From the IMG/VR virus record IMGVR_UViG_3300049136_000127, positions 1-30,771 of that record: a stretch of DNA of 30,771 nucleotides. The stretch is one strand, 5' to 3'. The notes under the pieces were generated by a model. The model did no database searches and was not told the origin of the DNA. It worked only from the letters and a program-made list of their open reading frames with translations. Below, piece by piece: positions 2,349 through 8,642 of this stretch (the first letter of the stretch is position 1; each line of letters begins with the position of its first letter). This stretch comes from a virus (taxonomy: Duplodnaviria; Caudoviricetes). The position numbers and the translations under genes were made by a program.

Positions 2349-2615
2349 ATGAGTGAAGATCTCACCCGCGCCGACGGCGAGCTGCTCAAGCTGCGCGCCA
2401 GCATTCACGCTGCGGTCGGCAATGACTGCCAGATTCAGCACCGCCTCGACGAGTTCGAGCGTGCCGTCGAGAAGCGCGCGGCCGAATGGCTGCGTACGCA
2501 GGGAACCCCGACGAATTCCGCCCTGATCGGTCGTCTCGCCGAGACGCTCGACCCCGACACCGACGACCAGGTGCCGCCGTGGCGCCCCTCGCGCAACGGG
2601 CCTGCACGCATGTGA
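2349..2615 (+). CDS. Hypothetical protein (88 aa)
   Basis: GAGAGG SD upstream of ATG; followed by a terminator-like hairpin. Confidence 0.65.
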   Translation: MSEDLTRADGELLKLRASIHAAVGNDCQIQHRLDEFERAVEKRAAEWLRTQGTPTNSALIGRLAETLDPDTDDQVPPWRPSRNGPARM

Positions 2616-2638
2616 CGGCAGCCTCTTGACGGACCGTC

Positions 2639-2682
2639 CGACGCCCCGCTCGGCATCCCCGCCGGGCGGGGCGTCGCTGTTC
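2639..2682 (+). terminator. Hairpin ending the upstream operon
   Basis: CGACGCCCCGCTCGGC / GCCGGGCGGGGCGTCG stem (one G-U pair), weak CTGTT tail. Confidence 0.55.
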
Positions 2683-2788
2683 CCCCAAGGAGACAAAGGG
2701 CGCATGTCCGACTCGATCCTTTGTGACCTCAGACACATTTGTACCGGCCGGTAACGGCGGTGCCTGAGCACCCTCGACATCCCGGATC

Positions 2789-2854
2789 GCAGCATTCCGC
2801 GAGCATTCTGCACTCAAACTGAACGCAAACGCGCGTCAAACTGCGATGAATTGC
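2789..2854. repeat. Six degenerate, phased 11-bp tandem units (iteron-like)
   Basis: gcagcattccg/cgagcattctg/cactcaaactg/aacgcaaacgc/gcgtcaaactg/cgatgaattgc; CAAAC at 2815, 2826 and 2837. Confidence 0.6.
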
Positions 2855-3038
2855 ACGCTGCATCTATCGGCAAACGAAACACATCATCGCAGGTCAACGC
2901 GTTTTGTCCCTGGGGGACTCCCCGGTCCCTCGCGCGCGCGTGTTCCCCTCCCCTCCCCTCCGGTCTATGGCGGGGGTAGAGAGAGCAACTACCGGTAGTG
3001 GCGGGCGCGCGATCGATCTCTCTCACTGCCCCCGCCGC

Positions 3039-3067
3039 TTGCAAATCCCCCGAACCTGTCGCAGTCT
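3039..3067 (+). promoter_or_regulatory. Putative sigma70/HrdB-type promoter for the late region
   Basis: TTGCAA (3039-3044), 17-nt spacer, CAGTCT (3062-3067). Confidence 0.45.
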
Positions 3068-3072
3068 GGCGA

Positions 3073-3400
3073 GGCAGACGACGGCTGCCCAACAGCCGGA
3101 ATCACACAGCCTCAACAGCGCCCCCGATGCCGACACCGGCCGGGGGCGCTGCTCATTCCCCCCACACCACAGACCGGCTGGCGCACCCCCGTCGCCGACC
3201 GGAACGGCGCCGCCTCCCGATCCGGTCCGAGGCGGCGCCGCCCCACACTCGCGCGGGGCGGATCAAGTCACGAACCATGGCGGGTTTGCTGCCCGCCCCG
3301 CGCGTACGACCGTCCGCTGCTCGGCGACGGGATCGGAGAGATCTCCCCCGCGGGCGTAACCGCGATCGCGGGGCGCGCGCAGCGCCCGAGCAGCGGACAC
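3073..3400 (+). ncRNA. Candidate structured leader RNA / ncRNA (tandem hairpins ending in a four-way junction)
   Basis: Stems at 3116-3151, 3174-3202, 3205-3240, 3250-3304 and 3312-3398 separated by A/C-rich linkers; no credible ORF. Confidence 0.45.
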
Positions 3401-3426
3401 CCCACCCGACGAGAGGACACCGCCCC

Positions 3427-3681
3427 ATGCGCGTACGCCCGTCGGACGGGACACACGAGATCGAGATCGACACCGACACCCCCCTCGCCGAGATCGAGGC
3501 CACCCTCGGCCGGCTACTCGACCGGCTGCGCGCCACAGCCGAGCAGCCCCACCAGTCGCCGCCGTTCGGGTTCACCGGCCGCGACCTCGACGGCGTCAGC
3601 CTCGACAGCAGCACCGAACGAGCCGAGCGGTACGACGACGGCCGCGACCAGGACGACGAGACCGAGGACAAACAGCAGTGA
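3427..3681 (+). CDS. Small acidic hypothetical protein (84 aa)
   Basis: GAGAGGA SD then ATG 3427; GTGA overlap with the HNH gene. Confidence 0.7.
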   Translation: MRVRPSDGTHEIEIDTDTPLAEIEATLGRLLDRLRATAEQPHQSPPFGFTGRDLDGVSLDSSTERAERYDDGRDQDDETEDKQQ

Positions 3682-3977
3682 GCGGAGGATGGGCCGACAG
3701 CAACCGACGCAGCGAGCTGCCCGCCGACTGGCCCGAGCGACGGGCGTACGTGCTCGCCCGCGACGAGTACAGGTGCCGATGGCACGAGCAACGCAGGGTG
3801 TGCGGTCGTGCCGCGACCGACGTCGACCACATCACGCCCGGCGACGATCACCGATACGAGAACCTGCAGGCACTCTGTCGCGACCATCACGCGATCAAGA
3901 GCAGCCGCGAAGGGAACGCCGCGCGCTGGTCGGTACGCATGACGCGACCGGCCGAACGACATCCCGGTCTGATCTGA
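3678..3977 (+). CDS. Phage HNH endonuclease (HK97 gp74-like packaging cofactor)
   Basis: VLARDEYRC...C...ATDVDHI...NLQALCRDHHAIKS motif; position next to the predicted cos and upstream of terminase. Confidence 0.9.
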   Translation: MSGGWADSNRRSELPADWPERRAYVLARDEYRCRWHEQRRVCGRAATDVDHITPGDDHRYENLQALCRDHHAIKSSREGNAARWSVRMTRPAERHPGLI

Positions 3978-4028
3978 CCGAGCGCCCCCCTGGGGGGTGA
4001 CTCCCCCTCCCCCCCCCGATCGGAGCCT

Positions 4029-4038
4029 CGGGAGGTGC
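4029..4038. other. Predicted cos site (10-nt 3' overhang CGGGAGGTGC)
   Basis: Directly after HNH, preceded by C/G tracts and followed by TGTGG...CTGTACGGGTCTG, resembling recalled actinophage cohesive ends; exact cut position inferred. Confidence 0.55.
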
Positions 4039-4241
4039 TGTGGGCGTCTGTCTGTACGGGTCTGGGGAAAACGGCCACGCTGCGGGGCGTGGGCGGCGCG
4101 CAGGGCGGCGCGCACGGGGTCGGTGGGGTGATTTGATGCCCGGCGGCGAGGGGGCCGCAGAGGGCGTCTCACCCCATCGGCACCGACTAACGGAACGGTA
4201 AACACGCAGCTCACAGGGTGTTTTGGCGTTACAACACCCGC

Positions 4242-4253
4242 TATCATGAGGGT
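4242..4253 (+). promoter_or_regulatory. Putative -10 element for a leaderless transcript
   Basis: TATCAT (4242-4247), 6 nt, then ATG 4254. Confidence 0.5.
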
Positions 4254-4853
4254 ATGAACACGCGACGCTGCGAGCACTGCGACGAGCACCTCGGCGCACG
4301 GCACGCACACAATGCCCGGTACTGCTCGGGCCGCTGCCGCACCGCCGCGTGCCGCAAGCGTCGGACGATCCCCGCCGAGCTCACGAGCCGGCCGCGGTGG
4401 ATCCGGCGCACCCCGCGGAAGGTTCCGATCACGGTCGGCGGCGAGACGGCGAGCAGCACCGACCCGTCGACCTGGTCGCGGTACCGCGACGCCGCGGCGA
4501 GCAACGCCGGCGCCGGGCTCGGGTTCGTGCTCGACGGCGACGGGATCGTTGTGCTCGACCTTGACCACTGTCTCGACGGCGACCAAGTCGCACCGTGGGC
4601 GCAGGGCGTGCTCGACGCCGCGGCCGGCTGCTGGGTTGAGGTGTCGGCGGGCGGCGACGGGCTGCACGTGTGGGGGCACGGCCGGTTGCCGGGCGGCGCG
4701 GGGCGCCGGCTGCGGCTCGGCGACGGCACGGTCGAGGTGTACGGCACTGCTCGCTATGTGGCCGTAACCGGACGCACCTTCGGCGACGCCCTGCGACGCC
4801 TCGGCGATCTGTCCGAGGTGCTCGATATGCTCGGGCTCGGGGGTGGGGAGTGA
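4254..4853 (+). CDS. Stand-alone NrS-1-type primase-polymerase (AEP) catalytic domain with an N-terminal Zn finger
   Basis: ASSTDPSTWS, GLGFVL, DLDHC (DxD), EVSAGGDGLH (His motif), VEVY..RYVAVTG; N-terminal CEHC...YCSGRC. Confidence 0.85.
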   Translation: MNTRRCEHCDEHLGARHAHNARYCSGRCRTAACRKRRTIPAELTSRPRWIRRTPRKVPITVGGETASSTDPSTWSRYRDAAASNAGAGLGFVLDGDGIVVLDLDHCLDGDQVAPWAQGVLDAAAGCWVEVSAGGDGLHVWGHGRLPGGAGRRLRLGDGTVEVYGTARYVAVTGRTFGDALRRLGDLSEVLDMLGLGGGE

Positions 4854-5602
4854 ACGACCGTAGGTGCGTGGCTTGTTCGGCGCCGATCGTCGGTCGTCGA
4901 GCCGACGCGGTGTACTGCTCGACTGTCTGCGCGAAGCGGGCAGCGGGTCGGGCGCGGAAACAGCGCAACCGCAAGGTGCGTGATCTGTCCGAGACGGCTG
5001 AGTGTCCGCAGTGCTCGACGCGGTTCGAGGTGTGGGCGCCTCGCCAGTGCGGTGGGTACGCGCGTCGGTCGTACTGCTCGCAGCCGTGCACGAAACGCGC
5101 CGAGGCCGCTCGCCGCCGACAGACTGAGTCAGGTCGTCGCTATTACGAGCACTACCGCGACGCCGGGAAGTTCGCCGAGAACAATCGCCGGTCGAGGGCC
5201 GCGCGGCGCCGGTCTGCGGTGTATGTCTGCGCCTACTGCACGACGGCAGTCGAGGGCACCGAGGATCAGCAGCGCGTGACGTGCGGATCCGACGAGTGTC
5301 TACGTGCCAACGCGCGACAGCACACCACAACGCGGAACGCTCGTAAGCGCGGTGCAACCGTCGAGACGTTCCGGTACTCCGAAATCTTCGAGCGTGACGG
5401 TTGGGTCTGCGGGATCTGCTGCGAGCCGGTCAACCCCGAGCTGCAGTTCCCGGACCCCGGCAGCGTCTCGCTCGACCACATCCACCCGATCGCCCGTGGC
5501 GGCGAGCACTCGCGGGCGAACGCTCAAACGGCTCACCTCGGTTGCAACCTGCGGAAGTGCGCAACGGTGCAAGCCGAGCGCGTAATCGACTCGCTGCTGT
5601 AG
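4850..5602 (+). CDS. HNH endonuclease with three N-terminal Cys4 Zn-finger repeats (homing-endonuclease-like)
   Basis: IFERDGWVCGIC...SLDHIHPIARGGEHSRANAQTAHLGCNLRK; CVAC..YCSTVC, CPQC..YCSQPC, CAYC..TCGSDEC; GTGA overlap. Confidence 0.9.
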   Translation: MNDRRCVACSAPIVGRRADAVYCSTVCAKRAAGRARKQRNRKVRDLSETAECPQCSTRFEVWAPRQCGGYARRSYCSQPCTKRAEAARRRQTESGRRYYEHYRDAGKFAENNRRSRAARRRSAVYVCAYCTTAVEGTEDQQRVTCGSDECLRANARQHTTTRNARKRGATVETFRYSEIFERDGWVCGICCEPVNPELQFPDPGSVSLDHIHPIARGGEHSRANAQTAHLGCNLRKCATVQAERVIDSLL

Positions 5603-5604
5603 CG

Positions 5605-5645
5605 CCCGACACGGGTCGCGCGGCGGCGCACCCGACACGGGAGGT
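5605..5645 (+). promoter_or_regulatory. Twin CCCG-ACA-CGGG hairpins, the second overlapping the SD
   Basis: CCCGACACGGG at 5605-5615 and 5631-5641; SD GGGAGGT 5639-5645. Confidence 0.6.
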
Positions 5646-5652
5646 ACAGCAC

Positions 5653-6465
5653 ATGGCACGCCTGCAGATCCTCGAACTGCCCGAGGGCACCGACGACGTG
5701 CGGCCGCCGTACGTGCTCGTCGTCGACGAGACGACGCCGCAGCGCGTCGTGATCGGCATGGATCAGGGCGCGGTCCCGGACTACTGGCAGCGGGTCGCCG
5801 ACGCGATCGGCGCGCGCGGGGTGATCGTCACGGCCGAGACGGTCGAGATCCCGGCGAACGACGTCTCGGTCGAGTTCCGCGAGGGGCTGCAACAGCACCT
5901 CGGGGAGATGTACGAGACGGCTCGGCGGTCGCTGTCGGAGTCGGAGACGCTCGGGCACAAGCTGCTGCAGCGCGCCGAGATCGCCGAGGCTGTGACCGCG
6001 CAGACGAAGGGACTCTTGGAGCGTCGTACGCGGACGCTTCGCGAGCGTGCCGAGCAGGCCGAGGCCGGACGAGTCGCCGCCGACAACATGCTGCGGGCGG
6101 TCTGCGAGGTGTTCGGCGGCCCCCATCAGGATCCGGTGATGAAGGCACGCGAGACGCTGGCCCGCGCCGAGAATGCCGAGGCCAAGCTGCAGGCGCTCGC
6201 CGAGGCGCAGCAGCGTGAACTCGTCGAGCGCATGGACGCGATTACGGATGCGCTCGGGCTCGACCGGCTGCGCGACTGGGACGAGATCGTGTCGGCGATC
6301 AAGCGGCAGCGGCAGATCGATGTCGACGGCGGGCACCGGTTCGTCGCCATTCCAGAGCGCGACGGCGGGCTGTGCTGCTCGGTCTGCGGTGTCACCCGGG
6401 ATCTGTGGGCTGACCTGCCGGGCACCCCGACGTGCGCCGCGATCAAGGAACGGGGGTACTTCTGA
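5653..6465 (+). CDS. Hypothetical coiled-coil protein with a C-terminal Cys/His cluster
   Basis: Strong SD, ATG 5653; long helical E/A/R-rich middle; HRF...CCSVC...C at the end; TGATG overlap with TerS. Confidence 0.75.
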   Translation: MARLQILELPEGTDDVRPPYVLVVDETTPQRVVIGMDQGAVPDYWQRVADAIGARGVIVTAETVEIPANDVSVEFREGLQQHLGEMYETARRSLSESETLGHKLLQRAEIAEAVTAQTKGLLERRTRTLRERAEQAEAGRVAADNMLRAVCEVFGGPHQDPVMKARETLARAENAEAKLQALAEAQQRELVERMDAITDALGLDRLRDWDEIVSAIKRQRQIDVDGGHRFVAIPERDGGLCCSVCGVTRDLWADLPGTPTCAAIKERGYF

Positions 6466-6950
6466 TGGCAGGCAACGGCCCCGCCCCGAGCGACCGCAAG
6501 GTACGGCGCAACAAGGACACCATCCCGCAGACCGTGCTCAGGTGGGAGCGCGCCGAGGCGCCCGAGCTGCCCGAGTTCCGCATCGAGCGCGACGGCGAAC
6601 TCGTCGAGTTCGTGTGGCCCGAGCGCACCCGCGAGTGGTGGCAGATGTGGATCGACTCGCCGCAGGCCGAGCACTTCGGGTCGTCCGACTGGCAGTACCT
6701 ACTCGACACAGCACTGATCCACGCCCGGCTGTGGCGGGGCGACCTGTCGGCGGCCGCCGAGCTGCGGCTGCGGGTCGCGGCGTTCGGGGCGACGCCCGCG
6801 GACCGGGCCCGGCTGCGGATGGTGTTCGCCGAGGCGGACGGCGCCGACGGCGGCAGCGGCCGGTCGGGTGGGCCGAGCGCACGTGAGCGATACGGGAACC
6901 TGCGGCCGCTGCCCGGTGGTAAGGCGGCGGGCGGCAGCAAGGGCGCGTAG
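6465..6950 (+). CDS. terS: Terminase small subunit (actinophage type)
   Basis: MAGNGPAP..., WPERTREWW...SPQA...DWQYLLDTALIH...AAELRLRVAAFGATPADRARLR; directly upstream of TerL. Confidence 0.85.
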   Translation: MAGNGPAPSDRKVRRNKDTIPQTVLRWERAEAPELPEFRIERDGELVEFVWPERTREWWQMWIDSPQAEHFGSSDWQYLLDTALIHARLWRGDLSAAAELRLRVAAFGATPADRARLRMVFAEADGADGGSGRSGGPSARERYGNLRPLPGGKAAGGSKGA

Positions 6951-6965: not shown

Positions 6966-8642
6966 ATGCCGTGGCGTGGCCCGGAGTACGAGGGAGAGTT
7001 TCCGACGCTCGGGTACTACGTCCTCGATTGGATGATCGAGAATCTCGCGCAGCCCGGCCGGGACGACGGCGAGCCGTTCGTTCCGACCGCCGAGCAGGCC
7101 GAGTTTCTGCTGCGGTACTACCAGGTCGACCCGCGCACCGGCCGGCGGGTGATTCACCGGGCGCTGCTGTCGCGGCCGCGCGGTTGGGGCAAGTCGCCGT
7201 TCGTCGGGGCGATCGCGCTCGCCGAGGCGTGCGCCGATGTCGTCGCCGATGGGTTCGACGCCGACGGCGAGCCGGTCGGCCGGCCGTGGCACTCGCTGCG
7301 TACGCCGCTCGTGCGTATCGCCGCGGTGACCGAGGATCAGACCGACAACACGTGGATCCCGCTGCGGGAGATGGCTCGCGGCGGGTCGCTGTCGACCGAC
7401 TATGGGCTCGAAGTCCTCGACACGGTCATCTATCTGCCGCGCGGGGAGATCTCCCCGATCACGTCGAGCGCGACCTCGGCGAAAGGCGACCCTGCCTGTT
7501 TCGCGTCGCTCGACCAGACAGAGGAATGGACCGCGACGAACGGCGGCGTGCGCCTCGCGAAAGTGATGCGGTTCAACGCCGCGAAACTCGGCGGGTCGCT
7601 GATCGAGACGCCGAACGCGTTCACCCCGGGTATGAGCAGCGTCGCGGAGCAGTCGGCCGCCGACTATCAGGCGATCCTCGACGGCCGGTCACGGGCGCGG
7701 GGCATCCTGGTCGACCACCGGGAGGCGCCGCCGGATACGGACATGACCGACGAGCGGTCGCTCGTCGCTGGGCTGCGGTACGCCTACGGCTGCAGCTCGG
7801 ATCATCCCGACGGGTGCGTGCTGCACGACCCGCCGTGCGAACCCGGCTGGTCACCGATCGAGCGGCTCACCTCCGAGTTCTACGACACGTCGAATGACGT
7901 GCAGGATCTCCGGGCCGACTTCCTGAACCAAATCACTCACGCCAGTGACGCATGGTTGACCGAGCCCGAGGTGCGCGCGTCGTCCGACCTCGGCAAGACC
8001 GTCGAGCCGGGCGACCGGATCGTGCTCGGGTTCGACGGCTCGCGGAAACGGGCCCGGGGCGTCACGGACGCGACCGCGTTGATCGGCTGCCGGCTCAGCG
8101 ACGGGCATCTGTTCACGCTCGGCGTGTGGGAGCAGCCCGAGCGGATGCCGGTCGGCCCGGACGGCGAACCGGTCGAGTGGCAGGTGCCGGTCGTCGAGGT
8201 GCTCGCCGCGGTGCACGAGGCGTTCGCGACGTACGACGTCGTCGGCATGTACGCCGACCCCGCCAAGTGGGAAAGCCACGTCGCGGACTGGGAAGCGGCG
8301 TACGGGCCGCGGCTCAAGGTGCAGGCGACCCGGAACCATCCGATCGAGTGGTGGATGACCGGCGGCCGCAGCACGTTGATCGTGCGGGCGCTGGAGAAGT
8401 TCCATACCGCGCTGGTCGAGGGCGAGTTGACGCACGACGGGTCGAGCGCACTCGTGCGGCATCTGGTCAACGCGCGCCGCCGACCGAGCAAATCGGGCCT
8501 GCAGATCGGCAAGGCGCACCCCGACAGCCCGAAGAAGATCGACGCCGCGGTCGCGGCCGTGTTGGCGTGGCAGTGCCGGCTCGACGCGATCGCGAAGGGC
8601 GTCGCGGCGGTCGAGGAAGAGATGTACGGCGGCACGTTCTGA
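6966..8642 (+). CDS. terL: Terminase large subunit
   Basis: Walker A RPRGWGKS; Walker B-like FASLDQ; RNase H-like nuclease LGFDGS...DATAL...KIDAAVA. Confidence 0.95.
   Translation: MPWRGPEYEGEFPTLGYYVLDWMIENLAQPGRDDGEPFVPTAEQAEFLLRYYQVDPRTGRRVIHRALLSRPRGWGKSPFVGAIALAEACADVVADGFDADGEPVGRPWHSLRTPLVRIAAVTEDQTDNTWIPLREMARGGSLSTDYGLEVLDTVIYLPRGEISPITSSATSAKGDPACFASLDQTEEWTATNGGVRLAKVMRFNAAKLGGSLIETPNAFTPGMSSVAEQSAADYQAILDGRSRARGILVDHREAPPDTDMTDERSLVAGLRYAYGCSSDHPDGCVLHDPPCEPGWSPIERLTSEFYDTSNDVQDLRADFLNQITHASDAWLTEPEVRASSDLGKTVEPGDRIVLGFDGSRKRARGVTDATALIGCRLSDGHLFTLGVWEQPERMPVGPDGEPVEWQVPVVEVLAAVHEAFATYDVVGMYADPAKWESHVADWEAAYGPRLKVQATRNHPIEWWMTGGRSTLIVRALEKFHTALVEGELTHDGSSALVRHLVNARRRPSKSGLQIGKAHPDSPKKIDAAVAAVLAWQCRLDAIAKGVAAVEEEMYGGTF

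Follow-up and report, generated by a model that had tools for sequence, protein, structure and literature searches.

A short NrS-1-type polymerase domain protein encoded beside cos in actinobacterial phages and satellites

Packaging at cos is thought to require nucleases and a ligase, not DNA synthesis. What, then, would a DNA polymerase domain do beside cos? The question is raised by one gene of the window, which is the whole 30,771-nt stretch of IMG/VR record IMGVR_UViG_3300049136_000127 analyzed here, a provirus record with a siphovirus late module (HNH, terS, terL, portal, capsid, tape measure, endolysin). It is most closely related to Streptomyces prophages and phage VWB. A preliminary description, made from the letters alone, had read this gene as a minimal primase-polymerase that may belong to an undescribed system for processing genome ends. 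The features referred to below are:

3678 to 3977, plus strand: small HNH endonuclease of the terminase-associated type (phrog_333, E 8e-33), context
4029 to 4038, plus strand: putative 3' cohesive overhang at cos with a length of 10 nt (11 if 4028 is counted in); the left genome end would lie at 4039
4053 to 4060, plus strand: conserved motif TGTACGGG, 14 nt in from the left end, present in carriers and non-carriers of the gene alike
4227 to 4233, no strand: CGTTACA box (YGTNACR), predicted finger binding site or operator
4242 to 4247, plus strand: TATCAT, a -10-like hexamer 6 nt before the ATG, predicted leaderless promoter
4254 to 4853, plus strand: protein of 199 aa with a Zn-finger and an NrS-1-type AEP catalytic domain (PHROG 8643), lacking helix-bundle domain and helicase
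4269 to 4355, plus strand: Cys4 finger and basic helix (C6, C9, C24, C28, R29, R34), predicted DNA-binding tether
4365 to 4832, plus strand: AEP core (D102, D104, S131, H138, E161, R167, Y168)
4850 to 5602, plus strand: multi-finger HNH endonuclease, homing-endonuclease-like, a window-specific passenger outside the conserved unit
6465 to 6950, plus strand: terminase small subunit, terS (PF25673, E 4e-30), context
6966 to 8642, plus strand: terminase large subunit, terL (phrog_9, E 2e-65), context

The reading frame is real, with an ATG at 4254 and a TGA ending at 4853. The PHROG 8643 profile matches over its full length (residues 4-182 on profile positions 2-177 of 179, E 3e-67); the Pfam Prim-Pol match is weak (E 4e-6). 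In the PDB, residues 48-177 match the catalytic domain of the NrS-1 primase-polymerase (E 9e-19), and only about 22 residues follow this stretch. Pfam finds neither a helix-bundle domain (HBD; PF22763/PriCT) nor a helicase in the protein, so the preliminary description was right that there is no helicase and no room for the bundle. The HBD is confined to long relatives, and in 129 of 152 aligned stretches the protein continues for fewer than 60 residues past the match. The structural comparison with NrS-1 proposed at that stage agrees with the profile searches: an AF2 model (pLDDT 91.8) has the NrS-1 N300 structures as its best Foldseek matches (PDB 6k9a, E 1.6e-12, TMq 0.67, rmsd 2.6). NCBIfam gave no match to the 199-aa protein, and no family of the PADLOC models (2023 library) matched it at E 0.1.

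The AEP motifs and the N-terminal Cys4 noted from the letters are intact, and the motifs map residue for residue on NrS-1: D102/D104 correspond to D78/D80, S131 to S108, H138 to H115, E161 to E139 and Y168 to Y146, with NrS-1 numbers that were assigned manually along the 6a9w alignment and checked with the residues that PMC8718748 names. Using the motif II and III definitions of PMC5862659, motif I (hhhDhD) reads VVLDLD with D102/D104, motif II (sxH) reads GLH with H138 and motif III (hD/E) reads VE with E161. Of the NrS-1 serine loop (S108-P109-S110) and the sugar-gate tyrosine Y146, S131 and Y168 are retained, and P109 and S110 are A132 and G133 in the window copy. The G133 position is a serine in 124 of 128 short relatives, and S110A in NrS-1 merely lowers activity (PMC8718748). 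Conservation was scored in 131 aligned stretches from short (at most 260 aa) 50%-cluster representatives, with gapped rows set aside, and is nearly complete at the active site (D102 in 130/130, D104 in 128/130, S131 in 127/128, H138 in 121/126, E161 in 117/122). A catalytically dead protein, which would have spoken against the earlier proposal, is not what this conservation predicts.

HBD mutants of NrS-1 lose priming and keep primer extension (PMC8718748), and the first 200 residues of NrS-1 cannot synthesize DNA without a primer (review PMC8775771). Since HBD and helicase are both missing here, these data predict a primer-dependent polymerase, not a primase, and the primase part of the earlier name is unlikely to be apt (PMC8718748, PMC8775771). 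PHROG 8643 proteins stand outside the NrS-1 replicases by HBD, by helicase and by genomic context.

The Cys4 finger is common to the polymerase and phage HNH nucleases (phrog_1271, phrog_8660). The 199-aa protein contains no HNH nuclease domain; its N-terminal finger alone matches HNH families. An ESM Atlas search with the finger gave a best value of 0.82, a mere lead. In seven relatives, placed on several branches of the catalytic-core tree, an HTH stands where the finger would be. The one HTH variant with known context, from a metagenome locus, directly precedes terS-terL, and a scan of viral contigs for this variant returned finger-type loci. The core tree itself (146 rows, each with at least 115 aligned residues) groups all 72 finger-type proteins in one clade (SH-like support 0.81) that leaves out 17 of 18 long forms.

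The gene shows purifying selection, with a median dN/dS of 0.30 and a maximum of 0.57 (232 close pairs among 164 loci, one dropped), compared with 0.17 for TerL. Broken copies are rare, one clear and two doubtful among 199. The gene, though optional, is maintained, unlike a decaying passenger. The polymerase and TerL diverge together across 165 carriers: no pair combines at least 85% identity in the AEP protein with less than 60% in TerL, and none of 294 pairs with TerL identity of at least 90% falls below 60% in the AEP protein.

The putative cos of the window was placed by aligning it with the genomes of Samy, Krakatau, Poushou and Juicebox at their physical left ends, which read 14 nt and then [TG]GTACGGG; the polymerase ATG would lie 215 nt to the right of this cos. 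The Samy overhang, called from read termini, ends in AGGTGC, as does that of the window (PMC11302927). In an annotated phage collection 34 records match the polymerase, and where records begin at the physical end it is gene 1 (Samy, Bauer, eight cluster F mycobacteriophages and five corynephages), with the match beginning 189-231 nt from that end. The gene-neighbourhood survey suggested in the preliminary description covered 297 fetched loci holding the gene, equal to 213 distinct proteins, in a sample biased toward relatives of Streptomyces-centred queries. The proposed linkage to cos holds up well in it. In 192 of the 213 distinct carriers terL lies within 3 kb, on the same strand in 188 and on the opposite strand in four; twelve others are terL-less loci with a tape measure gene that resemble satellites, five are of other kinds and four are too short. 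None of the 213 lies in a replication module.

Three arrangements about cos were found: forward at the left end (188), inverted there (xhp1, L105) and inverted on the right-end side (L289, L328). In xhp1 the inverted gene lies between the physical end and terS; in L289 and L328 it lies between the small HNH gene and cos, where cos was read by eye. The gene tracks cos rather than an operon. Of the 154 carriers with sufficient upstream DNA, 58 showed a strict cos pattern, with the left end at -176 to -216, and 21 a looser one; the other 75 have cos types outside the search pattern. In SF3 (L007, 5128-7575) the genes after the polymerase are annotated on the opposite strand and there is no terL within the fetched flank, which suggests an inversion or an assembly oddity. 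PHROG 226 and RefSeq call the TerS of 6465-6950 a "minor tail protein", yet Pfam Terminase_7 matches it.

The leaderless-type promoter proposed earlier, about 200 bp from cos, gains support from comparison. A generic sigma-70 promoter and terminator scan of the window returned nothing, and TATCAT at 4242 fits a TANNNT hexamer that precedes the start in 194 of 208 homologues, 6-7 nt away in 192 and 9 nt away in two; a transcript of the homologous gene is known from Samy. A YGTNAC/GTNACR box occurs at -48 to -12 in 150 of 208 carriers (shuffled mean 18, maximum 29), and a CGTAC variant in 29 further carriers. Its distance to the -10 ranges from overlap to about 10 nt, which is operator-like rather than like a -35. 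The box travels with inverted genes, and it is absent from the short cos-terS intervals of the non-carriers Minnie, DRBy19, prophiGD11-1, L221, L222 and L258-L262; some longer non-carrier cos intervals hold scattered matches. The CGTAC variant pairs with the finger helix RAA in 28 of 29 loci, and in 148 of 149 loci that have the standard box the helix has other residues; these pairings are spread across 15 groups of the core tree. This covariation could reflect physical linkage alone, since box and finger lie about 100 nt apart. A strict box was not found within 200 nt in 38 of 183 carriers, and in xhp1 there is none between cos and the inverted gene.

The downstream HNH gene, the hairpins and the origin-like cassette, proposed earlier as parts of the same system, are not conserved parts among carriers. 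The downstream HNH gene (4850-5602) has a DNA match in one of 114 carriers with long flanks. The upstream small HNH gene is of the ordinary terminase-associated type, also present in non-carriers, and is a probable source of nicks at cos. Hairpins are real at 3116-3151 (z -6.2) and at 3205-3240, the latter within a stretch of z -4.1 (mononucleotide shuffles), and the hairpin stretch is matched in 12 of the 114 carriers; these hairpins are possibly structured RNA or terminators. The 2620-3000 stretch is matched over half its length in four of the 114. A repeat search of 2600-6600 returned GC-rich chance repeats alone and no iteron array, and no AT-rich origin was seen beyond one 100-nt bin at 51% GC. 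Nothing origin-like was identified in these searches.

Several minor observations concern these neighbours. The HNH protein of 4850-5602 has several fingers of the same type as the finger of the polymerase, and similar genes occur immediately upstream of cos in eight further carriers and, in Minnie, at the right end. Both hairpins are strong GC hairpins in the non-coding stretch before the small HNH gene, and they are kept in close relatives alone. Between HNH and terS, an ORF at 5653-6465 (270 aa, coiled-coil-like) has no family match and DNA matches in 20 of the 114 carriers. In five non-carrier phages (L258-L262) about 450 nt of AT-rich, tandem-like repeats lie between the small HNH gene and terS.

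The suspected connection to nuclease and packaging functions reappears in protein fusions. Four proteins (P0164, P0139, P0338, P0198) join the AEP domain to three TerS families, and P0209 carries a tail matching no assigned family. Each TerS fusion is a singleton cluster of neighbouring genes, and these fusions may be read-throughs; no second copy of the P0198 type was present among 79 matches. Fusions to HNH-type nucleases are of two kinds, one seen in P0321 with its 99 members and the other in five clusters grouped about P0339. No genomic loci were found for the P0321 fusions, and the A2 scan for HNH-fusion loci gave one locus with the nuclease part alone.

Expression can be followed in one relative, Samy, in published bulk-culture RNA-seq (PMC11302927, S3 Table and rows of S1 Data); no RNA data set is listed among the sequencing runs that hold the gene. 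Of ten conditions with poor or no induction, six have gene 1 in the most-expressed group; S3 Table does not include terS, terL or portal among its most-expressed genes (PMC11302927). Normalized means at MP24 are 193 for gene 1 (660 nt), 13 for terS (447 nt), 5 for terL (1710 nt) and 1060 for the repressor (777 nt); under inducing HT they are 4321, 13691, 32756 and 4524, respectively (PMC11302927). The margin of gene 1 over terS is small in MM (126 vs 54) and SAF (94 vs 42), and the rise from MM to HT is 28.8-fold for gene 1 compared with 198-fold for terS and 274-fold for terL (PMC11302927). The published table gives gene 1 (L002, 185-844) an antisense index of 0.64 (PMC11302927), and unlabelled paired columns suggest that antisense RNA exceeds sense RNA in the lysogen at MP24 (24 h). 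Gene 1 of Samy is transcribed on its own, apart from the late operon and already in the uninduced lysogen, and it is not co-expressed with terS/terL. Expression in the lysogen, together with about 29-fold induction vs 200-270-fold for the terminase, indicates that it is not a late packaging gene; the late replication switch entertained in the preliminary description is weakened accordingly.

The gene is unevenly distributed. In a TerL-similarity survey of 77 loci, in which those with too little upstream DNA were left out, all 19 readable loci with at least 61% TerL identity were carriers, as were 15 of 16 at 43-44% and one of about 17 at 47-56%. In cluster F the gene is present in 14 of 283 records (eight phages) with the same terS-terL. 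There the first 21 nt are common to carriers and non-carriers; the cassette begins immediately behind them, stands in place of nt 22 to about 120 of the left end otherwise found, and rejoins inside the start of terS. Seven cluster F carriers show no variable sites in nt 1-855 vs 93 in nt 856-2880: the cassette is a recent gain that has since spread across backgrounds. Patchy spread and an identical cassette are features of cluster F; in the Streptomyces clades the gene is fixed and intact.

The elements at the 12 terL-less loci are small and carry varying subsets of capsid/scaffold, TerS, HNH and integrase genes, with the polymerase gene kept right after a cos-like stretch. By gene content they would be satellites resembling EPIPs outside the Mycobacteriaceae. 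The EPIP tape-measure satellites (PMC12822802) are alike in having tape measure, capsid/scaffold, TerS and integrase and no terL or portal; the available part of the EPIP main text names no primase or polymerase, and the carrier elements come from Streptomyces and other actinomycetes. In three satellite-like loci there is a separate helicase-like gene (AAA_25 or DUF3987), and no helicase was seen in the other satellite flanks scanned. As side observations, the satellite loci (L043, L057, L064, L067, L071, L078, L080, L081, L082, L083, L087 and L118, also L093 and L169) from Streptomyces and other actinomycetes combine integrase, capsid/scaffold, TerS, HNH, cos-like site and polymerase without terL or portal; their tape measure gene encodes 1000-1560 aa, and some that carry the helicase-like genes adjoin FtsK/SpoIIIE-like genes.

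To what extent is this new? PHROG 8643 is labelled "DNA polymerase/primase" and includes VWB gp30 and gp1 of Samy, Krakatau, Poushou and xhp1, which are the same family over their full length in the same position, a label given by similarity alone. Our literature search, limited to open-access papers, found no published function or cos linkage for a PHROG 8643 protein, term searches of the xhp1 literature gave no mention of the gene, and the accessible part of PMC5862659 does not treat the short cos-side family. The family is already catalogued and its catalytic domain known; what seems to be undescribed is the tie to cos. NrS-1 (PDB 6a9w, 7rr3) and the phage and SaPI primase-helicases share the catalytic fold and D78, D80, S108, H115, E139 and Y146, but the window protein lacks the HBD and helicase, has an N-terminal finger, lies at cos instead of in a replication module and belongs with the short forms to the separate clade described above. 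AgaPP, a stand-alone PrimPol of mobile elements associated with pAgo, performs terminal transfer, end joining and break repair (PMC11724360) and could serve as a functional model for repair at cos; however, it primes, binds an adjacently encoded helicase and sits by pAgo (PMC11724360), a context with no counterpart here. The window has small HNH, cos, terS and terL in the same order as the HK97-type HNH-TerS-TerL module (PMC9410871), with a 3' overhang type of cos. We know of no polymerase that is part of an HK97-type cos cleavage module.

The explanation that we favor, tentatively and at clearly less than an even chance, is a primer-dependent repair polymerase stationed at cos, where its finger would hold it on GT(N)AC boxes and it would mend nicks and 3' ends. 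The finger would bind the box beside cos and could at the same time repress the gene's own promoter, given that the box adjoins the -10 or overlaps it. Lacking the HBD, the enzyme would extend primers without priming. Its substrate would be a 3'-OH at cos, left by HNH or terminase nicks or by frayed cohesive ends, either in a prophage whose cos is cut in place by its own, a helper's or a superinfecting terminase or HNH, or in circularizing or concatemeric DNA. Fill-in or end joining would leave a ligatable cos. Position, a conserved active site under purifying selection, primer extension without the HBD in NrS-1, box-finger pairing, HTH swaps, fusions, lysogen expression in Samy and the precedent of AgaPP count in favor of repair at cos. 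Yet a 10-11 nt overhang should anneal, so that ligase alone would be sufficient. Most cos phages do without the gene, as the cluster F records (14/283) and the loci at 47-56% TerL identity (1/~17) show, and the cos interval is also a natural intergenic slot in an HNH-cos-terS module. The co-divergence with TerL means that much of the linkage is inherited, not independent. Further points against are the 38 of 183 carriers without a strict box within 200 nt, the lack of one between cos and the inverted gene of xhp1, the possible read-through origin of the TerS fusions, the match to the strict cos pattern in no more than 58 of 154 carriers, and expression data from one relative in bulk culture with the antisense index of 0.64.

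Expression of this moron-like kind, from its own promoter in an uninduced lysogen, would also suit an exclusion factor that tails or fills the 3' overhangs of rival cos phages as they enter and so blocks their circularization, with the finger serving autoregulation or marking self. The gene is optional, was recently swept into cluster F and is kept by satellites, and terminal transferase activity is known for a mobile-element PrimPol (AgaPP, PMC11724360). We consider this unlikely, though worth keeping in view: exclusion needs no cos address, yet at most five of the 213 copies lie outside a recognizable packaging or satellite module, no PADLOC model matches, the TerS and HNH fusions are unexplained and the phage's own cos ends would be at risk. 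The fusions fit better with a lytic partner of HNH-TerS-TerL, which would extend the HNH nick with strand displacement to give rolling-circle concatemers or process packaging ends. Co-divergence with TerL, the rise of Samy gene 1 on induction and the promotion of cos cleavage by the HK97 HNH protein GP74 (PMC9410871) are in line with such a role. It is rather unlikely, however, given a 29-fold rise vs 198- and 274-fold for terS and terL in a gene that is on before them, a processivity that should be low without helicase or HBD (PMC8718748), a DNA polymerase encoded by Samy itself and the absence of the gene from most close cluster F relatives.

The cluster F cassette, invariant up to nt 855 and bounded just past the first 21 nt and inside the terS start, also recalls a selfish element that would use the terminase cut as a break and its own polymerase to copy itself into a co-infecting genome, a nuclease-free form of homing. 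A finger common to phage homing-type HNH proteins and the occurrence in either orientation agree with this. Fixed homing elements are expected to decay, unlike the polymerase gene, which is fixed in whole clades (19/19 and 15/16 in the bands given above) under purifying selection with almost no decay; one recent acquisition followed by ordinary flank recombination gives the same cluster F pattern, and we regard the selfish cassette as improbable. Action unrelated to cos is more doubtful still: either a replication or re-priming enzyme in a convenient intergenic slot, helped by a helicase in trans or with its finger standing in for the HBD, or a DNA-binding regulator without catalysis. The closest relatives are replicative primase-helicases, and the AAA_25 or DUF3987 genes of the three satellite-like loci are of the kind that partners AgaPP (PMC11724360). 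On the other side are the absence of all 213 carriers from replication modules, the lack of a helicase in the other satellite flanks scanned and the invariant acidic triad, which argues against a non-catalytic role.

The proposed readings in which the protein would act at its own, a partner's or a rival's cos cuts or ends jointly hold most of the weight. A broader statement of them, which we would put a little short of even, is that the biology of 3'-overhang cos sites in Actinobacteria could include this protein as a fourth, optional part: a polymerase tethered to the site and acting on the terminase or HNH cut, which guards its own cos in the lysogen, disables or converts rival cos ends, or both. 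A polymerase domain at cos in phages and satellites of Streptomyces, Mycobacterium, Corynebacterium, Arthrobacter, Bifidobacterium and Actinomyces points to an unrecognized reaction at genome ends, and there is a good chance of a new reaction at cos. On that broader statement, cos would be a contested site that is actively defended, not a passive sticky end. These ideas are directly testable with near-isogenic cluster F carriers and non-carriers in M. smegmatis, with the Samy lysogen and its transcriptomes, and with the protein itself, which is small.

The modular build of the family may also be of practical use, as the AEP core predicted here, primer-dependent, 150 residues long and fitted with an exchangeable DNA-binding head, would be a useful minimal enzyme. 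A different build is seen in P0187, a protein of 610 aa with two tandem NrS-1-type domains followed by an HBD, in which the motifs of the first domain are degenerate.
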